A DNA stretch of 32,000 nucleotides, from assembly GCF_003231495.1 (NCBI RefSeq), contig NZ_PQWO01000010.1, forward strand, positions 30,001-62,000, written 5' to 3'. Under the pieces are notes generated by a model that was not told the DNA's origin, made no database searches, and saw only the letters and a program-made list of their open reading frames with translations. This stretch comes from Acaryochloris thomasi RCC1774. GTDB taxonomy: Bacteria; Cyanobacteriota; Cyanobacteriia; Thermosynechococcales; Thermosynechococcaceae. Positions 7,253-19,505 of this stretch are shown here, piece by piece. Numbering within the stretch: position 1 is the first letter of the stretch; every line of letters begins with the position of its first letter. The position numbers were made by a program, and so were the translations under genes.

Positions 7253-9781
7253 CTAGCTTTCAGAAGCCTGTATAGATCGCCATAAGCTTTCGCAGAAAGG
7301 CTGTAGAGCGATATCTAATGCTGGACTATAAGCAAGAGAGGGGAAAAGCTCAGCCAAAAACTGAGACACCGCAGCATTCTCGACCACTGGGAAAAAGTCA
7401 GACGGAGCAGGACCATCAATGTGGCGACTGAGAACCCCAAAACCAGCACGAACGCGCGGATATTGTTGTAAGGGAGCATTTTTCTTAACCCACTGTTCGA
7501 AAGAATCAGAGCGCTCCATACCTGCCTGAAGAGCCTGAACATCCTGCGGTTTCGGTAGAGCTTGATTGGCCTGCAGTAGCGCTCTTTCAAGCCACTGGAT
7601 CCGTTGTTGAGGCTCTAACCAAGCCTTGAGGATAGGGATATTAGTAGAGATAGCCTCACCTCTAGAGATCGATAAAACAGCCTTTCCAAGGGGGGGGGCA
7701 CTTTTTTCCCATTGAGCTGCCGCAGCGGAGAGATTGCCCTGCCACCAATACACGCCACCTAAACATTGATGCAAGTAGGCCGTTAAAGAATCTTGGGCGG
7801 AGTGAGTCTTTAGCAGTTGTTGATAGAGCTGCACCACCTCTTCTTGTACTTGAGGGTAAAACGTTGCTGTCGGCGGCGATTGCAGCAAGGGACTGGTGAG
7901 AAAGAGAGGATCTCTGAGAATTTCAAGAGCAATGGCCTGCACCCCTAAATCTGCTTTGCCCTGTAACAGCAGACTTTGCCCCAAACTATAGAATCCCCCG
8001 CGTTTGGCAGGCATAAGCTGCGTAGATTTAAGAAAAGATTCAGTTGATTGGGACGGCTGGCGATTCAAGAGCTGTTGCCAACCCAGACTACTGGTCCCTG
8101 ACTCTTGAGAAGGAGACACCTGAACGTGACGCTCGAAAAACTCCAGGCTTTGCCTAGCTCTAACTTGATTAATCTGAGCGTCATCACTACGGACACTGCC
8201 CAAGTTCCAGCCCAACTGATAGGAGTAGTAAGGCTCCCAAGGAGCAAGCTGATGGGCCTGCTCTAGATCCGTAGTAAAGGATTCAAATTGCTCTTCTGCT
8301 AAAGCCGCAAAACCTCGACTAGAAAGCTGCCACGCTCGATGAATAGGCGCGAGCCATATCCCTACAGCCAACAATAGTCCCACTAGTCCCCAGCATAAAA
8401 TCTTGATACGCTTCGTGCTGTGCACCTCAGAAGATAACGGTAAATATTGGCGCAGAAGCGATAGCAGACCGACTAGGTAAAGAATCAGGGTGCCGCTGAT
8501 GCAAACAATATCGAGCTGATAATCAGTCAAGGCAACGATGCCATACCCGCCTAGCCCCGCAAGCAGACTCCAGGACATAATGCGATCGCCCTCTAATTCT
8601 ACGGGCTGTGCTTGCCACAGCCTTACCCCCCAATACACCAACCAGCCAATCATAAAGATGCATAGAGCAATCCCCAGCGCACCCAACTCAGCCCAAACCT
8701 GGGCAGGCGTCCCGTGGAGTTGATACACCAGTTCAGCTTCTCGGCCAGCCCAAGCCGGTCGATAGGACTGGTAAAGTAACGGAACACTGCCGGGTCCGGC
8801 ACCCAAGAGTGGGTGAGCCAGCCCCATTGCCCATCCCGTTGCGTTCGTAATCAAACGAAATGCAACGGTGCTCCCCGCACTATCCCGAGAGAAAGCACTC
8901 ACTAGCAGCGCACGCAGCCGATTGTTCGCCAGTACCGTACCGAAAAGACCAATCAATAGGCCCAGCCCCATCAGCCAACGGAAGCGTGGCGATAGGCGCT
9001 TCAGTAGTACTACTCCAGAGACGGCTACTAGAGCCATGCCCAACCACCCTCCACGGGAACTAGTGGTATAAAGATCCACAAGCCCTAAAAGCGCACCCAG
9101 GCCCCATACCCATTTCCATTTCGATGAGGCCCGTAGGCAAAGCCCTATAAGCAGCGGCAAGGTCAAAACTAGAAAACCCGCCACATAATTTTGGTGTCCA
9201 ATGGGTGCCCAGTTGCGCAGCTCCAATACTGAAAAATCAAAGGAGCGCTCCAGTCCCGAAGCTCGTAAGTCAGCCAAACGGTTCATTTCTGGTAGCAGGG
9301 TTTGAAAGAACCAGAGGCTAAGACTCACCGCAATAAATGCCAAACTCAAGCCACCTTGGGCAGCGAGGAGCTTCTGTCTTCGTGACGGACTAGAACACCA
9401 AGTGTTGAGAGCATAGAGGGCGGCTATTGCACATAATGCAGCCCAACTATGCCAACGAGCCTGCTGCGGGAATTGAGCCAAGAGCGTTGACCCCAATACC
9501 CCCAAAACGGTGAGCGCTGTTCCATAATCAAGGCCATAGCCCAATCGGGTGAGCTGAAACTGCATCCACCACGTTCTGAGCAGCCACAGCCAGGGCAGAA
9601 ATAAGCCAACCTGCCAAAGCAAGACCCAGGGCCAAGCCACCACTAAACTACTGCTGTCGGGCAATAGCGTAAATAGAGCATAAAAGCCAAATGCGAGGGG
9701 GCCAAACAGATCTCTAGAAGAAGATGGCTGGACAGATGTCTTTAGAGACGCAGTTCCATTAGACTCCATTGCAGCTCCCAA
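7253..9781 (-). CDS. O-antigen ligase / Wzy_C family polytopic membrane protein with a C-terminal soluble helical-repeat (TPR-like) domain of about 360 aa
   Basis: 842 aa with many TM segments through about residue 480. The motif YTTSSRGGWLGMALVAV is typical of the Wzy_C/O-antigen ligase loop. The track start is TTG at 9781, but the ATG at 9769 (MESNG..) is the more likely start. The gene converges on the phosphoglycosyl transferase gene with a 7-nt gap. Confidence 0.75.
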   Translation of the reverse strand: MGAAMESNGTASLKTSVQPSSSRDLFGPLAFGFYALFTLLPDSSSLVVAWPWVLLWQVGLFLPWLWLLRTWWMQFQLTRLGYGLDYGTALTVLGVLGSTLLAQFPQQARWHSWAALCAIAALYALNTWCSSPSRRQKLLAAQGGLSLAFIAVSLSLWFFQTLLPEMNRLADLRASGLERSFDFSVLELRNWAPIGHQNYVAGFLVLTLPLLIGLCLRASSKWKWVWGLGALLGLVDLYTTSSRGGWLGMALVAVSGVVLLKRLSPRFRWLMGLGLLIGLFGTVLANNRLRALLVSAFSRDSAGSTVAFRLITNATGWAMGLAHPLLGAGPGSVPLLYQSYRPAWAGREAELVYQLHGTPAQVWAELGALGIALCIFMIGWLVYWGVRLWQAQPVELEGDRIMSWSLLAGLGGYGIVALTDYQLDIVCISGTLILYLVGLLSLLRQYLPLSSEVHSTKRIKILCWGLVGLLLAVGIWLAPIHRAWQLSSRGFAALAEEQFESFTTDLEQAHQLAPWEPYYSYQLGWNLGSVRSDDAQINQVRARQSLEFFERHVQVSPSQESGTSSLGWQQLLNRQPSQSTESFLKSTQLMPAKRGGFYSLGQSLLLQGKADLGVQAIALEILRDPLFLTSPLLQSPPTATFYPQVQEEVVQLYQQLLKTHSAQDSLTAYLHQCLGGVYWWQGNLSAAAAQWEKSAPPLGKAVLSISRGEAISTNIPILKAWLEPQQRIQWLERALLQANQALPKPQDVQALQAGMERSDSFEQWVKKNAPLQQYPRVRAGFGVLSRHIDGPAPSDFFPVVENAAVSQFLAELFPSLAYSPALDIALQPFCESLWRSIQASES
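7690..7698. repeat. G9 (coding-strand C9) homopolymer inside the O-antigen-ligase-family CDS
   Basis: The sequence reads ccaagggggggggcactttttt. On the coding strand this is AGT GCC CCC CCC CTT (..SAPPL.., around residue 695 of 842). Confidence 0.9.
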
Positions 9782-9839
9782 GAATAAACGTTGGTTAAGG
9801 ACAGCACTCAGAGTCTATCTATATAGATCGAGACTTCCC

Positions 9840-10035
9840 TCAGCAGTGAGGATACCCGATTCTTTGGTGAAATTGGATGCAAGGCTGGGTCAAGCGCAAG
9901 TATGCGGCGATGAGATGTTCAGAAACCTGCCGCACGAAAGTCTTTGCCAGCATGAGGCTGAGATCGTCTGCTGATCCAGTGCTGCCTATCTTGGCACTTG
10001 TAATGAGAGCACAACCACAACAGTATCCACAATCA
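9840..10035 (-). pseudogene. Probable decayed PIN-domain toxin (vapC remnant) downstream of vapB
   Basis: An ATG overlaps the vapB stop as ATGA. It opens MIVDTVVVVLSLQVPR and then hits a stop. MIVDT is a typical PIN N-terminus carrying the first acidic residue. PIN-like text continues in another frame (..FVRQVSEHLIAAYLRL..). Only about 200 nt remain before the neighbouring gene start, whereas an intact PIN needs about 390 nt. Confidence 0.35.
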
Positions 10036-10275
10036 TATGGAAAAGCCATCTTTGTTATAAAGGGAGCCTGGACCAAAATCATTGGCTTTACATTTCGCCG
10101 TAGATTGAAGGGTCGCCAAATGTTTTGCTAACCGTGTTTGCCGCCTCAGCCGCCTCTGCTCTCGATACTCATGCTCTAAAGCGGCTTTTACGATCTCGGT
10201 TGGGCCTTGCCCCGTCAGTTCACGCAGTCGCTGAATTAAGCAATTAACTTTGGCATTTTTAATATTGATATCCAT
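10033..10275 (-). CDS. vapB: Type II antitoxin VapB, Rv0623-like (PSK_trans_fac) family
   Basis: 80 aa. The N-terminus MDINIKNAKVNCLIQRLRELTGQGPTEIVKAALEHEY and the C-terminus ..SLYNKDGFSI match the family pattern M.L.IK..E...L...L...TG...TEAV..AL ... LYDE.GLP. Confidence 0.7.
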   Translation of the reverse strand: MDINIKNAKVNCLIQRLRELTGQGPTEIVKAALEHEYREQRRLRRQTRLAKHLATLQSTAKCKANDFGPGSLYNKDGFSI

Positions 10276-10611
10276 ATTTCCATAATTTAATTTCTACAAC
10301 CAAGTTATAGACCATCTTTCTTGGGCAGATACGGAGCAAAAACCGGCTTTATCGATAAAAGTACAAAAGGCTAGAATGCTTTACTGCGGCGGTGTTGGCA
10401 CGTGAGGAGTAATGAGACAAAGCACATTATGTCTATGCAGATCCACTGGCAGAGAACCGTCTTTATCAAGGCTCTATACTCTATGCGGAGAGCTTTCTAG
10501 GTAAGATCACTGAACTTTCATTGAGGTGATATGAAAACGGAAGGAGCTGGGTAATGTAGATGTGGGAGCGAAAACAACAACCTTAATTCCAACAAAGAGA
10601 GACTGAAGAAT

Positions 10612-11124
10612 ATGAAATCTACATTCACTGCTAAGTACCTCCAGCACCTAACTAGCAAGAAGAAGAACAACGAAGGATTCACGCTAATTGAGCTTTTGGT
10701 TGTGATCATCATCGTCGGCGTTTTGGCTGCCATTGCTCTACCTAGCTTCTTAAATCAGATTGGTAAAGCTCGGGGTTCTGAAGCTAAATCTACTCTAGGC
10801 ACAATCAACCGTTCTCAGCAGGCTTATCGTTTAGAAAATAATACTTTTGCAACCGCGACTGGTACTCTAGACGCTAGAATCACCGAAAAATTCTATAATG
10901 TTGGCGTCACTGCAGCGGGTGTCAATACTACCTTTGCAGCTCATACAGCAGCAGCAGTCAATGGTGATCTCAAGTCCTATGGTTCTGCAGTTTCTCAAGC
11001 TGCAGATGGTACATCTTTTTCACAGATTGTTTGTGAGACAGAGGCAAACACTCAAACTGCACCAGCGGTTACATCTACAGCTGCGGGCCATTGTGCTACT
11101 CTCAACAGCAAGTCTGTTGAGTAA
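10612..11124 (+). CDS. pilA: Type IV pilin (PilA-like) with a prepilin N-terminal cleavage/methylation domain
   Basis: 170 aa. The leader MKSTFTAKYLQHLTSKKKNNEG is followed by FTLIELLVVIIIVGVLAAIALP, giving G-1, F+1 and E+5. Two C-terminal Cys residues (CETEANTQTAPAVTSTAAGHC) form a D-region-type loop. Confidence 0.9.
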   Translation: MKSTFTAKYLQHLTSKKKNNEGFTLIELLVVIIIVGVLAAIALPSFLNQIGKARGSEAKSTLGTINRSQQAYRLENNTFATATGTLDARITEKFYNVGVTAAGVNTTFAAHTAAAVNGDLKSYGSAVSQAADGTSFSQIVCETEANTQTAPAVTSTAAGHCATLNSKSVE

Positions 11125-11173
11125 GTAACTTTCACAGATTGGTGAAGGCTACAGCTGCTCAACCATAAGAACA

Positions 11174-11199
11174 TCAGGTAGGTGGAAACATCTACCTGA
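11174..11199 (+). terminator. Hairpin 50 nt after the first pilin stop codon, a candidate intrinsic terminator
   Basis: The arms tcaggtaggt and atctacctga enclose the loop ggaaac. This gives a 10-bp stem with one G-U pair and a 6-nt loop. No clear U-tract follows (caccaataaaatc), so confidence is moderate. Confidence 0.45.
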
Positions 11200-11925
11200 C
11201 ACCAATAAAATCTTCTATAAGATATCGGAAATATTCTAGACCAGAAGTATAAACGCAGGTCATACCTTGGCAGTTTAAGATATGAGTGACACATATTTAA
11301 ATCTTTAACACTACAGTAGTACATATCACACATTCCGAATATTTTCAGACCATAAAGTTTGGATTATATGAAGAACCTACAGAAGGCAAATCCTACTGTT
11401 GCAGCAGTGAAGTGCAAATTGCAAGTCTCACTTCAAGCCCAAACCTAGGTAATCGATGCTTCCATTGGCTTTCAGAGAGTCAATTTACAAATATGAAAAC
11501 AAACTGAGCAGTCAATTGCATTTCAGAGGCTTGCTCTCGACAAAAACATATAAGCCAGCTAATACCTATAGCTAGTTGCTCTCGTTGACGAGACAATCAA
11601 AATTTCAAAGACTTTACTTTACTAGAACTTCAAAGTTCTAGCAATATTATCAGTGCAGTGCACCTTAGCACAATAGTCCGGACACTTTTTTAGTGCCTGG
11701 ATGACCATTCCTCTAGGGTTACGGAGTACCAATGATCATTAAATCAAAGTCAGGTCTGAACCTGAGTTGCATTTAATTCGATGTTTCCTACACTCCATAT
11801 ACTGAAAGCCTTATGGCTACGTTCTGAAAACTGTCCGGAGTATTGTCAGCAAACATTGCACATAAAACATTAATCCTCAAATATCAAAACGCTACAGCTT
11901 CGGTATTTTATTGCAATTTATCTAA

Positions 11926-12417
11926 TTGAAAACAATGTTAATGCTCAATCTATTATATCGGAATAAAGGCTTTACACTGATTGAGTTACTAGTAGCAATT
12001 GTTATTATTGGCGCATTGGGAGCAATAGCTTTACCCAGCTACTTAAATCAAGCTTCTAAGGCTAAAGGATCTGAAGCAAAATCGCATCTAGGAAATATCA
12101 AGACAGCGCAAGCAGCCTATCGGCTAGAGACTAACGCTTTTGCAACGAGCTTAGGCGATTTAGATGTAAGAGTTACCGGTAAATTTTACACCTATTCAGT
12201 TGAAGGCACTCCTACTTCTCTATATGCAGAGCATCGAGCAGTTCCTGGAGCAGGGAATAATGACTTAAGGCGCTATGCTTCTGCAGTATCTCAGCCCAAT
12301 GAGTCAGTATTGACATCAGTTATTTGTCAAAGCGACAGCTCTCTTGGTAGTGGTGGAACCGTGAACGTAGTCGATACAACGCTTGCCTGCGATACTGGAA
12401 GCAGTAAAATTGACTGA
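11926..12417 (+). CDS. Type IV pilin paralog (PilA-like)
   Basis: 163 aa. The sequence ..LLYRNKG FTLIELLVAIVIIGALGAIALPSYLNQASKAKGSEAKS.. aligns closely with the first pilin through about residue 75 of the mature protein and again at Y.SAVSQ and the C..C loop. The track start is TTG at 11926. In-frame ATGs at 11935 and 11941 are alternatives. Confidence 0.85.
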   Translation: MKTMLMLNLLYRNKGFTLIELLVAIVIIGALGAIALPSYLNQASKAKGSEAKSHLGNIKTAQAAYRLETNAFATSLGDLDVRVTGKFYTYSVEGTPTSLYAEHRAVPGAGNNDLRRYASAVSQPNESVLTSVICQSDSSLGSGGTVNVVDTTLACDTGSSKID

Positions 12418-12438
12418 TAAATAGATTTCGATTAGCTT

Positions 12439-14622
12439 ATGGATAATACTTATTCAAGCGATCAAGCGAAAAACTTAGTCCAAGCAGCAAAGTCTTCTTT
12501 CTCTGAAGGCAGGTATTCTGAAGCCGCTCAACTCTATGACCAGTTAGTTTCGCTACAACCTAAGATCAGCACACATTACTGGTACTTGGGTTTATCACTG
12601 CTGCTGATAGAGCAGGAGTCTGAAGCTCAGGCGACATGGCTCGAAGGGGTAGTAGAGTTTACAGAAGACGGCACACTTTCTCTTTTAAGCATTCTAAAAT
12701 TTGAAGTAGAAAGGCTCGAGACAGCCTTCAATATGCAATCAGCATGGTTGGTTCGAAAATACATCCAAGAGATTGACCCTGATGATTTAGAGAACCTCTT
12801 GATAGCTCTTGATCATTCTGCCAACTTAGGATTTCTTGCAGAGTCTGACGAACTAATCTATCAAGTTATAGATTTAATTGGCCAGCATGAACATTTCGAT
12901 AGCGATGCGTTGCCAAAAGTAGTAAGCAGCCTACTCATAAATTCCCCTCATTCTACTGCTGCTGTTGATTTTATAGAGATCTGTATAGAGAAATACACAA
13001 ACTCACAAAAATTAGCCAGTATTCTTTTCTCGATCATTAATGATATTCAGCAAAATCACTCTATTCGCAGAGAAAACGTTATTAGGCTAGTTCATTTATG
13101 TCTAGACTTCTCACCTCAAAACTCATCTGTCTTAATTAACCTAATCTCTCTCTATCAAGAGATAGGTCAATACAATAGAAGCATTGAGTATGGGAAACAA
13201 CTTGTTGAGGTCTCTAGAACTAAATTTGATAGGATCTCGGCAATCTATCTCCTTGTAAAAGGATTTCTTTTGTCTGGCGGCAAGTGGCTAGAAGCAGAAA
13301 GTTCCTATCGAGAGTGCCATCATCTAATTCAAAGTTTTCTGAGCGAATCTCCCAGTCTTGACTTAGATAAATCAATGCGCCTGCTCGTGATTACAGGAGT
13401 AAGTCCCTACTTCTCAGATAATCCAGCAGCACATAACATCATTCGAAAGCAAATAATTCAGTCTTCTTGCACGAATTTTTCTAGGCAATCGATAGATACG
13501 GAGAAGCGGCATCAATCTAACAGGCCTCTGCGAATAGGATATATATCATCTTGTTTCCGCAGGCACTCTGTTGCATGGTTGTCTCGGTGGATTTTTCAGT
13601 ATCATAATTCCGATAAGTTTCACATATATGCTTATTCGCTTAAGCGTACAGATGATGATTTACAGAACTTTATTGCCAATCAGGTACAGAATTTTGTTCA
13701 TGTCTCCCCTGACGCAAAACCTACAGAAATAGCAAAGCATATCCAGCAAGATGAAATTGATATTTTGGTGGATTTAGATAGTATTACTTCTAAGAAAATC
13801 TGTTCTGTCATGATGTTGAAGCCTGCGCCTATCCAAGTTACTTGGTTGGGATCAGATGCATCTGGTGTACCAGTAATTGATTATTTCATGGCGGATCAAT
13901 ATGTTTTGCCTGATACTGCTCACGATTATTACACCTCAAAAATCTGGCGTTTACCTAAGACATACGTCGCGGTTGATGGCTTTGAAGCTAGCACACCCAC
14001 GTTACGTCGTTGTCATTTAAGTATTCCCAACGACGCTGTTGTCTTTTTTAGCTCTCAGACAGGATATAAGCGACACCAAAAAACAGTTCACTTGCAGATG
14101 AAGATCCTGCGCGAAGTTCCTGGTAGTTTTTTCCTGGTGAGAGGATTATCTGATGGAGATTCTGTCCAAGCCTTTTTTGCAGATATAGCTGAGCAGGAAG
14201 GTGTAAGTTTCGACCGTTTTCGTTTTTTGCCAACTTTCCCTTCAGAAGAAATTCATCGAGCCAATTTACAAATTGCCGATGTCGTTCTAGATACCTATCC
14301 ATACAATGGTGCAACTACAACTTTAGAAACGTTATGGATGGGTATTCCTTTAGTTACTCGCGTAGGTGAGCAGTTCGCAGCCCGTAATAGCTATGCCTTC
14401 ATGATGAACGTAGGTGTTGCTGAAGGCATAGCTTGGACTGACGAAGAATATATAGAATGGGGCATCCGCCTGGGCACAGATGAAGCACTGCGCAAGAAAG
14501 TTGCTTGGCAGCTCAAGCAATCGAGACACACCTCACCCCTTTGGGATGCCAAGAAATTTACTTGCGAGATGGAAAACGCCTACTGCCAGATGTGGGCCAA
14601 GTACACCGAACAAGTCAGCTAA
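12439..14622 (+). CDS. TPR-containing GT41 family glycosyltransferase (O-linked GlcNAc transferase / SPINDLY-like)
   Basis: 727 aa. The N-terminus has TPR-like helices (GRYSEAAQLYDQLVSLQP..). The C-terminal GT41 blocks are LRIGYISSCFRRHSVAWL, KPAPIQVTWLGSDASGVPVIDYFMAD, FFSSQTGYKRHQK, and DTYPYNGATTTLETLWMGIPLVTRVGEQFAARNS. It starts 21 nt after the second pilin stop. Confidence 0.85.
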   Translation: MDNTYSSDQAKNLVQAAKSSFSEGRYSEAAQLYDQLVSLQPKISTHYWYLGLSLLLIEQESEAQATWLEGVVEFTEDGTLSLLSILKFEVERLETAFNMQSAWLVRKYIQEIDPDDLENLLIALDHSANLGFLAESDELIYQVIDLIGQHEHFDSDALPKVVSSLLINSPHSTAAVDFIEICIEKYTNSQKLASILFSIINDIQQNHSIRRENVIRLVHLCLDFSPQNSSVLINLISLYQEIGQYNRSIEYGKQLVEVSRTKFDRISAIYLLVKGFLLSGGKWLEAESSYRECHHLIQSFLSESPSLDLDKSMRLLVITGVSPYFSDNPAAHNIIRKQIIQSSCTNFSRQSIDTEKRHQSNRPLRIGYISSCFRRHSVAWLSRWIFQYHNSDKFHIYAYSLKRTDDDLQNFIANQVQNFVHVSPDAKPTEIAKHIQQDEIDILVDLDSITSKKICSVMMLKPAPIQVTWLGSDASGVPVIDYFMADQYVLPDTAHDYYTSKIWRLPKTYVAVDGFEASTPTLRRCHLSIPNDAVVFFSSQTGYKRHQKTVHLQMKILREVPGSFFLVRGLSDGDSVQAFFADIAEQEGVSFDRFRFLPTFPSEEIHRANLQIADVVLDTYPYNGATTTLETLWMGIPLVTRVGEQFAARNSYAFMMNVGVAEGIAWTDEEYIEWGIRLGTDEALRKKVAWQLKQSRHTSPLWDAKKFTCEMENAYCQMWAKYTEQVS

Positions 14623-14657
14623 CGGCAAAGCTATGCGGTCGTGGAGGGACTCTGCAC

Positions 14658-16244
14658 TCAGCTAACTGGCTGAGTGAGTGGTAAGTCCTGAGGCCATGCA
14701 ATTAAATTGAGGCGATCCTGATAGTCTCTCAATGAGGCAAGGGGAATCAAGGCTTTTGTAAATGGCTGATAACCGTGGATTTGATAGCCCTCCTTCTTCA
14801 GATAGTTCGTCACTTCGAGGTTGCTGCCCTGACTGCCAGCAATATTTTCGTAAAGAATAATAGGTTTGAACTTTGCTAATAGTGTTTTACTTCCTGCAAG
14901 CACAGATAGCTCATGCCCTTCAGCATCAATCTTTAGAAAGTCTATCTGCTGAAGATTTTCGCGATTACAAATCTCATCCAGCGTAAAACAATTCACCTTC
15001 TCTGCTCCATCTGGGGCATTCTCTTCCGCAACCAGCTCATTTAACTCACTCGCTGAATTGAGCGATAAATAGGAGGTACCGTTACGATCGCTAGCAGCCC
15101 CCGCATAAATCGTCACCCAATCAAACTGGTTCACTAGGCGAGTCTCCTCCAAGCAACGAATACAGCCTGAGAAGGGTTCCACAGCAATCACCCGTCCCTC
15201 AGAACCAACCCGCTTAGCGGCGCTAAACGTATACACGCCCACATTGGCTCCCACATCAATCACAGTCATCCCTGGCTGCAGCCAATGCCGCCAAAATTCC
15301 ATCTCATCCTCGAACCAGTCCCCTTCCGCCAGCAGCACACTCGTCACAATGCTACGAAAGCTAGGCTCAACAGCAAGCGTAATCTCTTGGTCAAACGCAA
15401 CATAGGTATTCGGTTGCTCCGCCGTCACTTGAGTCCACTGCTCAGAGGCGTCGTGCAAATTGCCACTCGTTAAACTCTGGGCAGTTGTCAACCAATGCTC
15501 AGCAGTTTGGCACTGCCCCAAATCACGATACGCAATATGAAGCGCCTGGAGTACAGACATTTCCTGGGGCGCTAATTCTGCGGCTCGATGAAGATACATC
15601 AGACTTTCCCAAGCCCCGTTCATGATGCCTGAAACTCCTGCCCTTAGATTAATTGACACAGAGCTGAGAATTGTTTGATTGGCAAGTTGCAGAAACCGAA
15701 AGCCTGTTGGGCTATAAAAGACAAACTGCGATCTCCACAGCACTTCACTCGCCAACTTCAGCCCCTGGGCAAATGCTGTCTGCTCTTCCATCATGTTGGC
15801 AAACCAACTCTGCATATCTTCGCTAGTTATCTGCCAAGTTAGAGGTCGATACATCAGTCCCTTCGGCACGTCTGAAAGCAGAGAAATTGGCTGCAACGCA
15901 CTCAGAATTAAATTGAAAGAGATGTCACAGGCTGTTTCACGATCTCCCAGCATGCTTTGCAGTAAAGCTAGATGAACCTGACAAAGCGAATGACTACCTC
16001 CTTGTTGCAAGGCATCCACCGCCATCTCGACATAAAACGATCGCATCATCCCATCATCAGACCGCTCAGCCTCAATTAGAGCCATGACCCCCACATTATT
16101 GCAATCCAACTCAGTCTTCGGATTCTCCCAATCCGTCTGCTCCAAGATCTCTATGACTCCACCCCTCATCTCAGATACCACCTCAACACCCAGAGCATCA
16201 AGATACTGGAAATAGGTCTCAGAATAGGACGTGCGATCACTCAT
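14658..16244 (-). CDS. FkbM-family SAM-dependent methyltransferase with an N-terminal domain of about 300 aa and unknown function
   Basis: 528 aa. The C-terminal third reads MTVIDVGANVGVYTFSAAKRVGSEGRVIAVEP..FLKIDAEGHELSVLAGS, which is the Methyltransf_21/FkbM pattern. I recognise no motif in the N-terminal region. The gene converges on the GT41 gene with a 35-nt gap. Confidence 0.8.
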   Translation of the reverse strand: MSDRTSYSETYFQYLDALGVEVVSEMRGGVIEILEQTDWENPKTELDCNNVGVMALIEAERSDDGMMRSFYVEMAVDALQQGGSHSLCQVHLALLQSMLGDRETACDISFNLILSALQPISLLSDVPKGLMYRPLTWQITSEDMQSWFANMMEEQTAFAQGLKLASEVLWRSQFVFYSPTGFRFLQLANQTILSSVSINLRAGVSGIMNGAWESLMYLHRAAELAPQEMSVLQALHIAYRDLGQCQTAEHWLTTAQSLTSGNLHDASEQWTQVTAEQPNTYVAFDQEITLAVEPSFRSIVTSVLLAEGDWFEDEMEFWRHWLQPGMTVIDVGANVGVYTFSAAKRVGSEGRVIAVEPFSGCIRCLEETRLVNQFDWVTIYAGAASDRNGTSYLSLNSASELNELVAEENAPDGAEKVNCFTLDEICNRENLQQIDFLKIDAEGHELSVLAGSKTLLAKFKPIILYENIAGSQGSNLEVTNYLKKEGYQIHGYQPFTKALIPLASLRDYQDRLNLIAWPQDLPLTQPVS

Positions 16245-16333
16245 GCTCTAACTCAAATTAGGGACAGAATCGATCTTAATATCCCCAATTTCGGGCGATC
16301 TGCACACACCCTTCTGAAATCTGTGACAGCAGA

Positions 16334-17323
16334 TCACGCATTACGAGCCAGCCAATTGACCAAATCAGTCTGGTCCGAAAAATCCAGCAGCGCATCACTT
16401 AAATTTTCTAACTGAGAGATAGGCAACCCCCGAATCTGTGCATCTACTGGGGATGAAATCGTTCCAAATCGTCGATTGAGCAACCGCAATATGAGCGCAA
16501 CCTCTCCTTCCTGACGACCTTCCTGACGACCTTCCTGACGACCTTCCTGACGGCCTTCCTGCAAAGCCTCTTGATAGACCTTTGTTTGTCTCAATTCCCC
16601 AAGGCTAAACATACGTTCAATCTCCTCTCGACTGAGTTTCGGAAACTTGTAAACCATAATCGTTTCAATCATCTCTATTATCTCTCGAATTTTAGGCGTT
16701 GCACTCCGCTGGCTTCGAGCCTGTTCAACGAGTCTCTGAGCCTGCATCTCGGCGGTCTGCGGCCTAGCAACAATAAGCTGCACTAAACCGACACCCAACG
16801 AATCAGTCTCAACGGTTTGCAAATCTTCCAAATAGATCCGCTGTACCTGTGGGCAATCGAGTAAAGAACGAAAAAGATGAGACTGAGATGGCTCAGTACT
16901 ACGCTTCGCAAATAGAACAGCGGCTCGCCAGTCAACCGCCTGCGGATACTGCTGCAAAAACAGGAAAATCTCTGAGAAGAAGCGGTGGTAGAACTCTGGA
17001 TCAGACTGAACCTGAACCTCCACAAACCAAACGGTAGGGTCAATCGCATCTGGCTGGGGTAAAAACACACCATCAATGCGGAATGCAACTTGCTTCAGCT
17101 CAACGGAGCGGAACTGGTAATTCTGAGCAGCTTGCGCAGGCTGGCCCAAGAGTTCAAAAAAGATACTGGGTGCAGTCTGGAAAATTCGGTAGAAAAGAGA
17201 ATCTGTCTTCAAGCAACATTCCTGCCTATTAACAGAATTGATTGTAGATGGAAAGTTGGACTGCCTTGATGATGAGAGCCTCGTGACTCTGCGGTGAAGA
17301 ACCGACAAAAGTCTCAGTACCAA
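16334..17323 (-). CDS. Rpn-family / DUF2887 + DUF4351 PD-(D/E)xK-like putative nuclease, a multi-copy family in cyanobacteria
   Basis: KTDSLFYRIFQTAPSIFFELLG is a typical N-terminus for DUF2887. FRIDGVF..WFVEVQ is the nuclease-like core. The C-terminal LILRLLNRRFGTISSPVDAQIRGLPISQLENLSDALLDF resembles DUF4351. The likely true start is the TTG at 17212 (MKTDSLFY), not the track start at 17323. Confidence 0.7.
   Translation of the reverse strand: MVLRLLSVLHRRVTRLSSSRQSNFPSTINSVNRQECCLKTDSLFYRIFQTAPSIFFELLGQPAQAAQNYQFRSVELKQVAFRIDGVFLPQPDAIDPTVWFVEVQVQSDPEFYHRFFSEIFLFLQQYPQAVDWRAAVLFAKRSTEPSQSHLFRSLLDCPQVQRIYLEDLQTVETDSLGVGLVQLIVARPQTAEMQAQRLVEQARSQRSATPKIREIIEMIETIMVYKFPKLSREEIERMFSLGELRQTKVYQEALQEGRQEGRQEGRQEGRQEGEVALILRLLNRRFGTISSPVDAQIRGLPISQLENLSDALLDFSDQTDLVNWLARNA
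16506..16561 (-). repeat. 12-bp tandem repeat of about 4.7 units (ccttcctgacga on the + strand) encoding (QEGR)4QEG
   Basis: Read directly from the sequence. Units lie at 16506-16517, 16518-16529, 16530-16541 and 16542-16553 (last base differs), with a partial unit at 16554-16561. The repeat sits in frame inside the DUF2887/DUF4351 CDS, between its two domains. Confidence 0.95.
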
Positions 17324-17480
17324 TAGCTCCCCTGTTCAGATCACTTCACATCTCTCTCGAGGAACCTTACCAGTCGTTTAAGTTTCTTCATATTTAGAGG
17401 TATTGTATTAATATCCGTGGCAACAAATAGCTATCGGTTTATCCCTGAATATGCTGTGAGGAACTGGGGGAAACAGGGAA

Positions 17481-18554
17481 GTGAAACAACAGTTGTCATC
17501 CAAATCCTTTCTGATGGGGCGGACGCCACTACAGCCCGTGCGCGTCGGCGTGATCGGCGTAGGCAACATGGGCCAGCACCACACTCGAGTGCTGAGCTTG
17601 CTCAAAGATGTCGAACTCATTGGTATTTCTGACCTTGATCGCGAACGGGGCATTGACACCGCCAGCAAATATCAGGTGCAGTTTTTTCACAACTATCGCT
17701 CGATGCTGCCCCACGTTGATGCAGTGTGCGTCGCAGTCCCGACCCGACTGCATCACGAAGTCGGGATGACCTGCTTGCAGGCTGGCATCCATGTCTTAAT
17801 TGAAAAACCAATCGCCGCCAGTATTGCGGAAGCCGAATCTCTCGTCAATACTGCAGCCCAACAACAGTGCATTCTGCAGGTGGGCCATATTGAGCGCTTT
17901 AACCCAGCCTTTCAAGAACTGACCAACGTTCTAAAAACAGAAGAAGTGCTAGCCCTCGAAGCCCATCGCATGAGTCCTTACTCCGATCGAGCAAACGATG
18001 TCTCAGTGGTTCTAGATTTGATGATCCACGACATCGATCTGCTGCAGGAAATTGCAGCCGCTCCCGTTATTAAGCTGACGGCCAGCGGCAGCCAGTCAGG
18101 ACCGGGCTATCTCGACTACGTGACGGCTACGCTGGGGTTTGCCAACGGCATTGTCGCCACGCTTACCTCTAGTAAGGTGACCCATCGCAAGCAGCGACGG
18201 ATAGTGGCTCACTGTAAAAACTCACTGACCGAAGCCGATTTCTTGAACAACGATATTCAGATTCACCGACAGGTCACAGCAAGCTGCATGGCGGCCCACG
18301 GACAGGTTCTCTACCGCCAGGATGGCCTCATTGAGCAGGTCTCTACGAGTAATATTGAACCCCTTCATGCGGAGTTAGAGCATTTTGTAAACTGTGTGCG
18401 AGGTGGCGATCAGCCGTCAGTGGGCGGGGCTCAGGCCCTCAAGGCTCTGCGGCTAGCTAGCCTGATAGAACAGATGGCACTTGATGGCTGTACCTGGGAA
18501 ACATCTAGCGATGGACTGGAGCTAAGCTCACCTTCTGCAACGCTGCAGATCTAA
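17481..18554 (+). CDS. Gfo/Idh/MocA family NAD(P)-dependent oxidoreductase
   Basis: 357 aa. The Rossmann start is VRVGVIGVGNMGQHHTRVL and the EKP motif is VLIEKPIA. The track start is GTG at 17481, and an in-frame ATG at 17514 is an alternative. Confidence 0.8.
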   Translation: MKQQLSSKSFLMGRTPLQPVRVGVIGVGNMGQHHTRVLSLLKDVELIGISDLDRERGIDTASKYQVQFFHNYRSMLPHVDAVCVAVPTRLHHEVGMTCLQAGIHVLIEKPIAASIAEAESLVNTAAQQQCILQVGHIERFNPAFQELTNVLKTEEVLALEAHRMSPYSDRANDVSVVLDLMIHDIDLLQEIAAAPVIKLTASGSQSGPGYLDYVTATLGFANGIVATLTSSKVTHRKQRRIVAHCKNSLTEADFLNNDIQIHRQVTASCMAAHGQVLYRQDGLIEQVSTSNIEPLHAELEHFVNCVRGGDQPSVGGAQALKALRLASLIEQMALDGCTWETSSDGLELSSPSATLQI

Positions 18555-18667
18555 AACTTAATCTCGACATCATCAGATCGAGTCACTTTCTCAATTTGAA
18601 TGGTCTACACTACAGATTGCAATAACCCAACGGGCTTCATTTAGACTTGGAGAGAGGATCGAGCAAT

Positions 18668-18811
18668 ATGTCTTCAGATTTTGACCGTGGCATCATGAAG
18701 TTTGAGGGTGCCGATAAACCTGTCACGATCGCTCTGTCTGCGGTGATCGTATTAGGTTCTATTGCTGTTTTGATTGGATGGGCACTGCGCTCTGCCTATA
18801 TCTTTAGCTAG
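18668..18811 (+). CDS. Unannotated small ORF encoding a predicted 47-aa single-pass membrane protein
   Basis: My own reading gives MSSDFDRGIMKFEGADKPVTIALSAVIVLGSIAVLIGWALRSAYIFS*. A GGAGAG-type purine-rich stretch lies about 10 nt upstream of the ATG. There is one 22-residue hydrophobic helix. It falls below the size cut-off of the supplied track. Its 3' end overlaps the 3' end of the convergent comF by 8 nt. Confidence 0.4.
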   Translation: MSSDFDRGIMKFEGADKPVTIALSAVIVLGSIAVLIGWALRSAYIFS

Positions 18812-19505
18812 TATTTTGCTGGCTCTGGCTGGAACGGTTGAAGCGTTGCGCTTGGGCAACTGCAACAGTACCGTGTACTTGAATGCCTGATTTCTGTAAA
18901 ACCTGGGTGGCGGCTTTGATAGTGGCCCCAGTGGTATATATATCGTCCAGTAACAGTACAGGCCATTTAGGTCGCTGACGCTTGAAGTCCGGTCCCAGGG
19001 CAAAGGCTTGCTCTAGATTGCGCTGACGTTCGGTGATGGTCAGACCAAATTGGGCTTGGGTGGCTCGACGGCGGATTAAGGCTTGCGATCGCATCTTCAA
19101 CCCGGTCACCTGACAAAAGCTACGGGCAATCAACTCTGCCTGGTTATAGCCCCGTTGAGATCGACGCTGATCATGGAGCGGAATCGGCACCACAACACAT
19201 TGCTGGAGCACCTCCTGCTGTAGCCACGATTGTGCCAACCACTGACCCAACGGACGTGCGATTTCAGCTCTGCCGTCATACTTGAGGAGTGCGATCGCTC
19301 GTTTTAGAGCACCCGCATAGTTCCCCCATGCCAACACCGTAGTGCTCGAACACTTACTTTGGCACACCTGTAGTTGAGACAAACAATCTGAGCAAAAAAC
19401 TGCTGTCGCCCAGCGTTGACAAAGGGGGCAGCGAGGCCGCAAGCCTAACCTAAGAATACCCTCGACAATGGAAACCCATGCCATCTGCCGAAACCTATTC
19501 GGCAC
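18804..19505 (-). CDS. comF: ComF-family protein (phosphoribosyltransferase-like competence protein)
   Basis: 233 aa. The N-terminal zinc-finger pattern is CPLCQR..FCSDC, and the PRTase motif is VLLLDDIYTTGATIKAA. The track start is GTG at 19505, and an ATG at 19484 is an alternative. Confidence 0.8.
   Translation of the reverse strand: MPNRFRQMAWVSIVEGILRLGLRPRCPLCQRWATAVFCSDCLSQLQVCQSKCSSTTVLAWGNYAGALKRAIALLKYDGRAEIARPLGQWLAQSWLQQEVLQQCVVVPIPLHDQRRSQRGYNQAELIARSFCQVTGLKMRSQALIRRRATQAQFGLTITERQRNLEQAFALGPDFKRQRPKWPVLLLDDIYTTGATIKAATQVLQKSGIQVHGTVAVAQAQRFNRSSQSQQNTS

Follow-up and report, generated by a model that had tools for sequence, protein, structure and literature searches.

The window analysed here, a 32,000-nucleotide stretch of the Acaryochloris thomasi RCC1774 genome, carries two type IV pilin genes followed by a GT41 glycosyltransferase gene. 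This arrangement raises the question of whether the three genes form a dedicated module in which the GT41 enzyme O-glycosylates pilin before export, as was originally predicted. The features of the locus are listed below.

10521..10560, + strand: SigF-type pilA promoter of pil1, consisting of GTGATATGAAA, 12 nt and CTGGGTAATGTAG (conservation and published match)
10612..11124, + strand: pil1, type IVa major prepilin of 170 aa, the conserved copy (Pfam and TIGR profiles, alignment)
11174..11199, + strand: 11-bp stem-loop, ~50 nt past the pil1 stop (fold, conservation)
11671..11845, + strand: 175-nt element with a terminal inverted repeat of roughly 19 bp, inserted between the pilins (similarity searches)
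11926..12417, + strand: pil2, second, faster-evolving type IVa prepilin (profiles, alignment, tree)
12439..14622, + strand: ogtA-type GT41 glycosyltransferase of 727 aa (PF13844, 6.4e-57; human OGT, 2.5e-52; SPINDLY, 3e-44)
14658..16244, - strand: helical-repeat FkbM methyltransferase of 528 aa, convergent on the GT41 gene (PF05050, 6.6e-24; TIGR01444, 6.7e-30)

A duplicated pilin with predicted separate transcription

The pil1 product matches the N_methyl (2.6e-9) and Pilin_GH (3.8e-20) profiles of Pfam and TIGR02532. Its 22-residue leader ends at G/FTLIE, the mature pilin has 148 residues, and two Cys flank a 21-residue loop. Compared with the first pilin of other genomes, the protein shows 78% identity in the nearest relative and 66% in two same-family genomes. 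The pil2 gene was called from a TTG codon as a 163-aa protein, but the called gene of the nearest relative aligns to the ATG at 11935. This ATG is likely the true start and would give a 160-aa prepilin with a 12-aa leader; the product is 80% identical to the relative's second pilin. The two pilins are paralogs, as predicted, with 53% identity over 130 aa (E = 8e-43). Alignment confirmed that they have the FTLIELLV... helices and the Y.SAVSQ...C stretch in common and diverge in their middle and C-terminal parts. A tree of 78 pilins places them as mutual closest relatives (SH-like support 99), with a shorter branch for pil1 (0.44) than for pil2 (0.89). The pil2 gene is an old tandem duplicate.

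The pil1 promoter matches the SigF-dependent pilA1 promoter of Synechocystis, which has GGTAA at -12 within GGGTAAG (PMC2532724), and transcription is predicted to start near 10564. The GTGATATGAAA box and GGGTAA (10549-10554) are invariant in five related genomes. The arrangement GTGATAkGAAA-N-TGGGTAAGTTA, 114-129 nt upstream of the Gly(-1) codon, was found at 70 of 74 OgtA-linked pilins compared to 40 of 370 control windows. The stem-loop past pil1 probably terminates the pil1 transcript or stabilises its 3' end. The fold of 11120-11240 has an energy of -29.7 kcal/mol (z = -3.2), and none of 200 shuffles was as good. The hairpin is also present in L131, where the stem base is changed from C-G to U-A and DNA similarity past pil1 ends at 11235. 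The canonical SigF-type promoter and a separate 3' hairpin belong to pil1 alone; pil2 lacks this promoter, and so does the second pilin of Lyngbya PCC 8106, the one nearer to ogt. The predicted 21-nt spacing holds: the pil2 stop codon (12415-12417) is followed by 21 nt and the GT41 ATG at 12439, and the gap is the same in the nearest relative. Coupling to the GT41 gene therefore appears limited to pil2, with pil1 set apart by its own promoter and conserved hairpin.

For the 175-nt element between the pilins, similarity searches found one copy in each of three congeners and another elsewhere in this genome. These copies lie in unrelated contexts and match it at 86-90% identity. The element is missing from the pilin spacer of the nearest relative and has no match in Rfam. 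As far as can be told, it lies outside the function of the module.

The GT41 enzyme belongs to the OgtA clade

The GT41 protein has the predicted length and a Glyco_transf_41 domain; its N-terminal half (about 1-354) is helical and its C-terminal half (about 355-727) is the GT41 catalytic part. All TPR matches fall under the Pfam cut-offs (E 0.002-0.009), so the TPR designation in the original prediction is likely rather than formal. Alignment to human OGT pairs K544 with K842, H376 with H558, H606 with H901, and T626/T627 with T921/T922. These residues, among them the catalytic Lys and His, are invariant across 12 orthologs. No 19-aa window exceeded a Kyte-Doolittle score of 1.6, and the enzyme is predicted to be soluble.

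In the GT41 tree, the enzyme groups with Nostoc proteins inside the pilA-linked OgtA clade (support 97/97). Of the 74 related GT41 loci whose upstream flank was long enough to judge, 72 have a pilin as the immediately preceding gene on the same strand, an adjacency far beyond chance; the median gap in these relatives is about 170 nt versus 21 nt here. The genome has two further GT41 genes, paralogs on contigs C1 and C5. The Synechococcus elongatus enzyme, which was named in the prediction, does have a published role in pilin modification. It is not the ortholog, since it is 31% identical in the catalytic half only and groups in another GT41 clade with the C5 paralog, its best match here; the ortholog is Nostoc punctiforme OgtA. 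That the best-characterised enzyme sits in another clade counts against the module reading, as does a partial Mantel test in which TPR-specific co-variation with pilin was not found.

Candidate acceptor sites

Ser/Thr-rich segments had been proposed as acceptor sites. Both segments exist, each inside the Cys-Cys loop of its pilin, but conservation differs between the two. The pil1 loop is replaced by an acidic loop in the relative that is 78% identical, whereas the pil2 loop is conserved in the nearest relative. The Ser/Thr fraction over 75 linked pilins is 0.21 in the Cys-Cys loop compared to 0.18 in the whole protein. A conserved acceptor motif was not found, and this, like the non-conservation of the proposed loop, also counts against the module reading. 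The only mapped site in a cyanobacterial pilin, residues 67-75 of the Synechocystis protein, lies elsewhere than the Cys-Cys loop (PMC7076178).

An FkbM methyltransferase as the proposed fourth gene

All features predicted for a pilin-pilin-GT41 module are present, but the cassette appears to run past 14622 into the convergent FkbM gene. Residues from about 1 to 272 of its product form a TPR-like helical-repeat N-terminal domain, and those from about 323 to 520 a class I SAM methyltransferase domain of the FkbM type. In the AF2 model (pLDDT 81, pTM 0.78), 14 helices at the N-terminus precede a Rossmann-like domain. Foldseek aligned the model with class I methyltransferases and, with low TM, also with SPY and OGT; profile matches to designed TPR and BBS4 are weak. 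The gene is single-copy in the genome, and two same-family genomes carry the same pilin/ogtA/FkbM arrangement. It occurs in 10 of 17 relatives with an ogtA-type gene versus 0 of 13 without one. In 4 of these 10 genomes it lies beside ogtA, and in a fifth it is fused to a GT41 adjoining a pilin; in Microcoleus, a helical-repeat FkbM gene is fused to MT and GT4 domains. Counted on the other side, half of the FkbM-holding relatives have the gene apart from ogtA, and a same-genus genome has a GT4 and a 240-aa gene in its place. We propose from these patterns that the methyltransferase is the fourth member of the cassette.

The nearest relative has all four genes in the same order at about 78% identity. 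GC content is low, HIP1 is absent from the locus, and divergence between congeners is fast. The four genes evolve as a single unit that diverges fast across related genomes.

A model for pilin glycosylation and its alternatives

The locus is best explained as a pilA-ogtA form of the cyanobacterial major type IV pilin locus with a duplicated pilin and a partner methyltransferase, and we judge this account likely. In this model, pil1 would be transcribed from the SigF-type promoter to its own hairpin, and pil2 and the GT41 gene are probably co-transcribed. The soluble cytoplasmic OgtA-clade enzyme would attach a monosaccharide to Ser/Thr hydroxyls on the prepilin, either ahead of Sec-dependent membrane insertion or while this takes place. 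The donor would be a nucleotide sugar, putatively UDP-GlcNAc if the analogy to S. elongatus applies. The FkbM methyltransferase may next O-methylate the attached sugar. PilD processing and assembly would follow, placing sugars on the pilus surface, where they may influence piliation, surface behaviour and how stable the pilin is. The genome encodes a prepilin peptidase and PilB/PilT-type ATPases. Co-translational insertion counts against this order of events, since only the leader would then stay cytoplasmic and the time window for a cytoplasmic enzyme would be narrow.

An indirect role for the GT41 enzyme was also considered. It could O-glycosylate cytoplasmic type IV pilus components, regulators or other proteins, with pilin stability or mass changing downstream, and adjacency to pilA would then reflect shared function rather than an enzyme and its substrate. 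GT41 enzymes are classically nucleocytoplasmic with many substrates. The S. elongatus ogt mutant is pleiotropic and shows cofitness with the whole pilus and competence machinery. Transfer to pilin in vitro by a cyanobacterial Ogt was not found in the literature consulted, where the evidence is genetic, lectin-based and a mass shift. According to the summary in PMC9306852, N. punctiforme lacking ogtA is non-motile and accumulates no PilA at all, instead of making a pilin of reduced size. There pilA is SigF-dependent and ogtA SigJ-dependent, and this separate regulation counts against the module reading. However, a position just 3' of the pilin at 72 of 74 loci and the 21-nt coupling are typical of enzyme-substrate pairs, the GlcNAc lectin signal and mass of S. 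elongatus PilA are lost in the mutant and in a K445A allele, a Microcystis pilin encoded beside an OGT bears ten O-monosaccharides by cryo-EM, and GT41 fusions and neighbours are glycan-building enzymes. We regard indirect action as unlikely.

Less probable still is that the enzyme, perhaps with the methyltransferase, serves pil2 alone in a specialised unit for a glycosylated pilin of alternative or minor type, leaving the SigF-driven major pilin unmodified or served by another enzyme such as the C1 or C5 paralog. The gap that couples just pil2 to the GT41 gene, the separate promoter and hairpin of pil1, the Lyngbya parallel, the conserved pil2 loop and the two additional GT41 genes all fit this arrangement. 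Against it, the single pilin before ogtA at 69 of 72 loci is the SigF-promoter-bearing major pilin, which identifies the major pilin as the ancestral OgtA partner, and pil1 is closer than pil2 to those pilins. We give very little credence to a periplasmic PglL/PilO-type route, in which an 842-aa Wzy_C membrane protein (7253-9781, divergent upstream) would transfer a lipid-linked glycan that the GT41 enzyme and methyltransferase merely help to build or tailor. Wzy_C domains occur in the oligosaccharyltransferases PglL, PilO and TfpO, and the product of this gene, which lies 830 nt from pil1, matches PF04932 (4.9e-15) and has many membrane segments, with a long additional domain at its C-terminus. 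Yet a homolog is absent within 8 kb of ogtA at 80 of 80 related loci, a profile search did not find PglL_A in its product, and the product is 71% identical to that of congener G001, as ordinary flanking genes are. The gene lies at the edge of a separate polysaccharide cluster, and GT41 enzymes target proteins, not lipid carriers.

The cytoplasmic O-glycosylation module therefore stands in part: homology, synteny and published work argue for it as a reasonable and best explanation, but only pil2 appears coupled to the GT41 gene. The observation is correct and largely ordinary, the pilin/GT41 cassette being an already described gene set. The reading matches published work (PMC9306852; PMC12288463; PMC12397347), so it is supported by homology and synteny and is not new. 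New here are the clade of the enzyme, the FkbM fourth gene, the transcription layout, the non-conservation of the acceptor loop and the divergence of the locus.

Comparison with known systems

Adjacency of pilA and ogtA, and the role of ogtA, are given as general for cyanobacteria in a 2025 review (PMC12288463, citing Khayatan 2017). The N. punctiforme genes pilA (Npun_F0676) and ogtA (Npun_F0677) have the same order and strand, a major pilin then a GT41, and the Nostoc pilin has the same SigF-type promoter upstream as pil1. The Nostoc pilA-linked GT41s are in the same clade as the window's enzyme, with 46-48% identity over the full length and about 62% in the catalytic half. In contrast, the pilin here is duplicated with the second copy 21 nt from the enzyme, and the enzyme is long-branched, its N-terminal half differing at about 70% of positions. 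Nostoc loci mostly have a second GT41 or large multi-domain GT/MT genes where this locus has the helical-repeat FkbM methyltransferase.

S. elongatus PCC 7942 Ogt (Synpcc7942_0051) is a soluble TPR-GT41 encoded near two tandem pilin genes (pilA 0048/0049) and adjoined by glycosyl- and methyltransferase genes. Genetically, PilA glycosylation and normal piliation depend on it. The catalytic Lys445, which corresponds to K544 here, is required, and loss of Ogt strips PilA of GlcNAc signal and mass. An S. elongatus-like genome that was examined has ogt upstream of its pilins, with an opposite-strand GT2-GT4 gene between them. The S. elongatus pilins are only remotely related to pil1 and pil2 (branch 2.98).

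The Microcystis aeruginosa CT-pilus cluster encodes a pilin (BH695_0841), a pilin-like protein (0840), an OGT (0839) and an FkbM methyltransferase (0838), and each subunit carries ten O-linked monosaccharides of 174 and 160 Da (PMC12397347). By gene content and order this is the same four-gene logic of subunit, paralogous subunit, GT41 and FkbM, and the filament likewise displays many O-linked monosaccharides on surface Ser/Thr; the CT subunit has a novel non-type-IV fold, whereas pil1 and pil2 are classical type IVa pilins. By simple arithmetic, the 160 and 174 Da residues would fit a deoxyhexose (146) with one or two methyl groups.

The periplasmic systems (Neisseria PglL, Pseudomonas PilO/TfpO and TfpW) also have a glycosylation gene beside the pilin, strain-variable loci and surface-exposed sugars. 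Their enzymes are membrane proteins that move lipid-linked glycans in the periplasm, whereas the enzyme here is a soluble GT-B nucleotide-sugar transferase. Haemophilus influenzae HMW1C is a GT41 encoded beside its secreted substrate, the HMW1 adhesin, which is modified in the cytoplasm before Sec export. HMW1C differs in adding N-linked hexoses to Asn, in lacking classical TPRs and in acting on a two-partner-secretion adhesin, but its modification of a substrate before Sec export shows that the order of events proposed here is feasible.

The pilin genes and the adjoining GT41 gene

The original prediction described two type IV pilin genes followed closely by a GT41 glycosyltransferase gene. 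Every feature it listed is confirmed by the open reading frames and the sequence. The methyltransferase gene at the end of the list is the proposed fourth member of the cassette.

10612-11124 (+): pil1, type IV pilin of 170 aa, prepilin motif G↓FTLIE; N_methyl, Pilin_GH and TIGR02532 matches
11926-12417 (+): pil2, type IV pilin, prepilin motif G↓FTLIE; N_methyl, Pilin_GH and TIGR02532 matches
12439-14622 (+): GT41 glycosyltransferase of 727 aa
14658-16244 (-): FkbM-family methyltransferase, convergent on the GT41 gene; PF05050 6.6e-24, TIGR01444 6.7e-30

In keeping with type IVa major pilins, both proteins carry a class III signal peptide with a short basic leader, Gly at -1, Phe at +1, Glu at +5, and a hydrophobic N-terminal helix (...G↓FTLIELLV...), and their N_methyl E-values are 2.6e-9 and 7.2e-9. 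The two share 53% identity across 130 residues (E 8e-43), and in a tree of 78 pilins each is the closest kin of the other, with pil2 on the longer branch. Alignment with the nearest relative, a 5.7-kb metagenome contig, indicates that the true pil2 start is most likely ATG 11935, which would give a 160-aa protein. Cys pairs enclose C-terminal loops of 21 and 22 residues, and 72 of 75 linked pilins have such a loop. At other sites the source genome encodes a prepilin peptidase and PilB/PilT-type proteins. That genome also contains a 178-aa pilin-like ORF (G000:C5:26392-26772, - strand) with 41% identity to pil1. This ORF retains the helix and the globular part, has neither the G↓FTLIE cleavage motif nor Glu5, and is located 20 kb from a second GT41 gene of the Synechococcus elongatus type (C5:3585-6011).

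The GT41 ORF begins 21 nt past the pil2 stop. Both catalytic lobes fit the Glyco_transf_41 profile (PF13844, 6.4e-57, two stretches), and the enzyme matches human OGT (2.5e-52) and SPY (3e-44). The donor sugar is UDP-GlcNAc for OGT and GDP-fucose for SPY. The catalytic or UDP-binding residues Lys842, His558, His901, Thr921, and Thr922 of human OGT align with K544, H376, H606, T626, and T627, all of which are invariant across 12 orthologs. In place of OGT residues K898, R904, and H920 the enzyme has S602, N609, and A625, and His498 is outside the alignment. All TPR matches in the enzyme are below the Pfam cut-offs (E 0.0016-0.009); TPR hits are on record for many of the orthologs. The enzyme has no hydrophobic segment and is therefore predicted to be soluble.

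The GT41 belongs to the OgtA clade

Eighty related loci were fetched for comparison, 74 of them with enough upstream flank. A same-strand pilin gene is directly upstream of the GT41 gene in 72 of these 74 loci, as in the window. The locus is very probably the pilA-ogtA module. Related genomes commonly have ogtA in tandem duplicate, with both copies full-length (G018, G027, G005, G016, and G022).

The source genome contains three GT41 genes. A catalytic-domain tree places the window's enzyme in a 15-row clade (support 97/97) with the pilA-linked GT41s of Nostoc, Fischerella, and Microcoleus. The original prediction had drawn a parallel with S. elongatus, and one relative encodes a 639-aa GT41 along with a tandem pair of near-identical pilins. 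The catalytic Lys of this GT41 is ORF residue 451, or 445 counted from the second Met, and the protein is evidently of the S. elongatus Ogt type. It aligns with the window's enzyme only in the catalytic half (31% identity), groups with the C5 paralog in the tree, and scores 265 bits against that paralog compared to 157 bits against the window's enzyme. By best match and clade, both of which point to C5, the window's enzyme falls outside the S. elongatus Ogt (Synpcc7942_0051) orthogroup. The tree and the BLAST scores thus make the window's gene orthologous to OgtA but paralogous to S. elongatus Ogt. The pilA-linked GT41s form a clade apart from the one studied biochemically in S. elongatus, whose Ogt, of that different clade, hydrolyses UDP-GlcNAc (PMC9306852).

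Promoters and transcription units

Two boxes upstream of pil1, GTGATATGAAA and CTGGGTAATGTAG separated by 12 nt (10521-10560), are invariant in five related genomes. The architecture GTGATAkGAAA-N11/12-TGGGTAAGTTA occurs in 70 of 74 ogtA-linked pilins, 114-129 nt upstream of the Gly(-1) codon, compared to 40 of 370 control windows; it is a pilA promoter architecture fixed phylum-wide. The SigF-dependent pilA1 promoter of Synechocystis has GGTAA at -12 within GGGTAAG (PMC2532724), and the pil1 arrangement fits it. A SigF-type promoter was sought upstream of pil2 and was absent; Lyngbya PCC 8106 likewise lacks one at its second, ogt-proximal pilin. At 50 nt past the pil1 stop, a stable hairpin is kept in the nearest relative with one compensatory change; no hairpin was found between pil2 and the GT41 gene. 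From this layout, we infer that pil1 is probably monocistronic and highly expressed, and that pil2 and the GT41 gene would share a separate transcript.

In Nostoc, SigF is needed for pilA and SigJ for ogtA. A SigJ J-box promoter for the GT41 gene inside pil2 was considered and rejected: one near-match, GGGAATAAT (12253-12261), is not kept in the nearest relative. The J-box is not enriched upstream of ogtA (1 of 72 loci and 1 of 360 controls), and matches across the window are at chance level.

An FkbM methyltransferase accompanies ogtA

The methyltransferase has the Methyltransf_21/TIGR01444 domain and the class I fold of the FkbM family. In its AF2 model (pLDDT 81, pTM 0.78), 14 N-terminal helices in a repeat arrangement precede the class I methyltransferase domain. 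Foldseek with this model returned methyltransferases, along with SPY and OGT at low TM-scores, and profile searches gave weak TPR matches. The idea that the methyltransferase and the GT41 share a common substrate-binding N-terminal domain was discarded (hhalign probability 5%).

The nearest relative (L131) has the window's gene order of pilin, spacer, pilin, 21 nt, GT41, and convergent methyltransferase, with identities of 78, 80, 78, and 77% for the four genes in turn. Two same-family genomes carry a pair of pilins, ogtA in one or two copies, the methyltransferase, and then the same DUF2887 gene. Full-length methyltransferase homologs adjoin ogtA in 9 of 80 loci. The gene is present in 10 of 30 relatives, and in four it is convergent and adjacent to ogtA. 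A fifth relative (G021, L132 6525-10319) encodes a 1264-aa GT41-FkbM fusion ORF divergent from the adjoining pilin gene. In Microcoleus (L046 11228-16066), the helical-repeat FkbM module is the C-terminal part of a 1612-aa protein with GT4 domains. Another relative (G011, L130 5605-9051) has a 1148-aa GT4-GT41 fusion directly after a pilin. Of 17 relatives that have an ogtA-type gene, 10 also carry the methyltransferase, and all 13 that have no such gene lack it; because the genomes are kin, this co-occurrence is not an independent test. The source genome has a single copy. We propose from synteny, fusions, and phyletic pattern that the methyltransferase belongs to the pilA-ogtA module. That one methyltransferase family tracks pilA-linked GT41s in these ways makes it a concrete candidate for a pilin-sugar tailoring enzyme.

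In 61 of 70 loci, the 5 kb after ogtA contain glycosyltransferase or methyltransferase genes, among them second GT41s, GT4, Methyltransf_11/24, and short FkbM genes as well as giant fusions. Further glycosyl- and methyltransferases almost always follow the pilA-linked GT41s.

Candidate acceptor sites on the pilins

Ser/Thr-rich C-terminal segments had been put forward as acceptor sites. Both segments exist and are inside the Cys-Cys loop; they may still serve as acceptors, but comparison gives no preference to them. The loop is hypervariable across 75 linked pilins, and its median Ser/Thr fraction (0.21) is close to that of the whole protein (0.18), leaving Ser/Thr enrichment unsupported as a family-wide acceptor signature. 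In the relative whose pil1 is 78% identical, the loop is acidic with few Ser/Thr. Ser/Thr are better conserved in two other places. One is immediately ahead of the first Cys and has two columns with 70-90% Ser/Thr; the other is the loop past the long helix, at T56 and T59 of mature pil1. The sole mapped cyanobacterial site, Synechocystis residues 67-75 (PMC7076178), falls in the region of the latter loop. Co-evolution with the pilin globular domain specific to the GT41 N half was not detected (Mantel r 0.72 and partial r 0.31 with the N half, 0.73 and 0.34 with the C half), and there was no domain-specific signal.

Composition and evolution of the locus

The GC content is 44% in pil1, 38% in the spacer, 42% in pil2, and 41% in the GT41 gene, compared to 50.2% for the genome. 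A 10.5-kb stretch (8583-19084) is without a HIP1 site (GCGATCGC), for which the genome average is 0.56 per kb. In a comparison with a same-genus genome (G001), identity is 71-91% for the flanking proteins, and for the GT41 it is 28% over the N half and 60% over the C half. G001 has a GT4 gene and a 240-aa gene, the latter without a Pfam match, where the methyltransferase would be. All that is left of the methyltransferase in G001 is a 56-aa remnant of its N-terminus beside DUF2887 (G001:C780, L122 8412-8579, 54% identity), which marks a recombination breakpoint within the methyltransferase gene. A further congener is without an ogtA-type gene and differs in the region upstream of the common right flank.

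The low GC and the HIP1 gap suggest a simple foreign island, a reading rejected because the arrangement, including the DUF2887 neighbor, is conserved in two same-family genomes. Two other genera of the family share the four-gene order, and for this reason a fast-diverging locus that occasionally exchanges cassettes fits better than recent acquisition.

Several neighboring features were also recorded. The DUF2887/DUF4351 gene (16334-17323, -) is a recurrent pilA-ogtA neighbor, downstream in the window and three related genomes and upstream in ~13 Nostoc-type loci; a DUF4351 gene is upstream in the nearest relative, and the source genome has only four copies. The pilin spacer contains a discrete, sharply bounded 175-nt element (11671-11845, +) whose ends form a ~19-bp inverted repeat (CAATAGTCCGGACAC...TGTCCGGAGTATTG). 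Three same-genus genomes have one copy each and the source genome has a second one (G000:C14:21094-21269), all at 86-90% identity to it. The copies sit in unrelated contexts and are more conserved than the coding flanks (72-79%), and the nearest relative's spacer lacks the element. It could represent a MITE-like sequence or a structured small RNA; an Rfam scan of 9700-16500, which includes it, gave no match. An 80-aa Rv0623-like antitoxin-type gene (10033-10275, -; PSK_trans_fac 1.5e-12) is located between a Wzy_C gene and pil1. The 842-aa Wzy_C protein was dismissed as a conserved pilin partner, with no homolog within 8 kb in the 80 related loci; the 848-aa gene at the equivalent position of an S. 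elongatus-like genome is an unrelated GT2-GT4 fusion.

Mechanism and relation to known systems

In S. elongatus, Ogt (Synpcc7942_0051, next to pilA 0048/0049) is a soluble enzyme that needs Lys445 and is required for the PilA GlcNAc signal, full PilA mass, and normal piliation (PMC9306852). The same study counts 77 of 201 cyanobacterial genomes with ogt adjacent to a pilin gene and makes the case for glycosylation in the cytoplasm. [quoted passage not shown] A 2025 review treats the adjacency and its role as general knowledge (PMC12288463). The reading of the locus as a cytoplasmic pilin O-glycosylation module is thus sound and correct in kind, and in view of this work it is not new. The module, re-derived here from sequence, adds one more member to those in the cyanobacterial pilus literature. 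The OgtA-clade assignment, the methyltransferase partner, and the promoter architecture extend it modestly.

Direct O-glycosylation of one or both prepilins by the GT41 in the cytoplasm is the probable mechanism. The main rival, indirect action of the GT41 through cytoplasmic pilus-machinery proteins, is unlikely. A periplasmic O-oligosaccharyltransferase of the PglL/PilO type is suggested by the upstream Wzy_C gene, but this system is very unlikely, with no PglL_A match and no homolog within 8 kb in the 80 loci. With direct glycosylation as the preferred reading, OgtA would attach a monosaccharide to the type IV pilin in the cytoplasm, and the helical-repeat FkbM methyltransferase would then O-methylate that monosaccharide. 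Methylation of the attached sugar is a tentative assignment. Tentative, too, is the full proposal, in which two-step cytoplasmic decoration places methylated monosaccharides, similar to those suggested below for the Microcystis CT pilus, on the type IV pili of many cyanobacteria and is encoded by a fast-diverging, swap-prone pilA-ogtA island. If it is true, the variable downstream glycosyltransferase and methyltransferase genes give each lineage its own pilus surface, and such lineage-specific surfaces would matter for phage attachment, aggregation, and biofilm behavior.

The closest published parallel to the window's four-gene cassette is the Microcystis CT-pilus cluster, which consists of a pilin, a pilin-like gene, OGT BH695_0839, and FkbM BH695_0838 (PMC12397347). 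Ten O-linked monosaccharides, with masses of 174 and 160 Da, decorate the CT filament, and the authors read them as processed O-GlcNAc (PMC12397347). Unlike that reading, our own arithmetic suggests a deoxyhexose with two or one methyl groups, masses that would fit a SPINDLY-like transferase acting with a methyltransferase.
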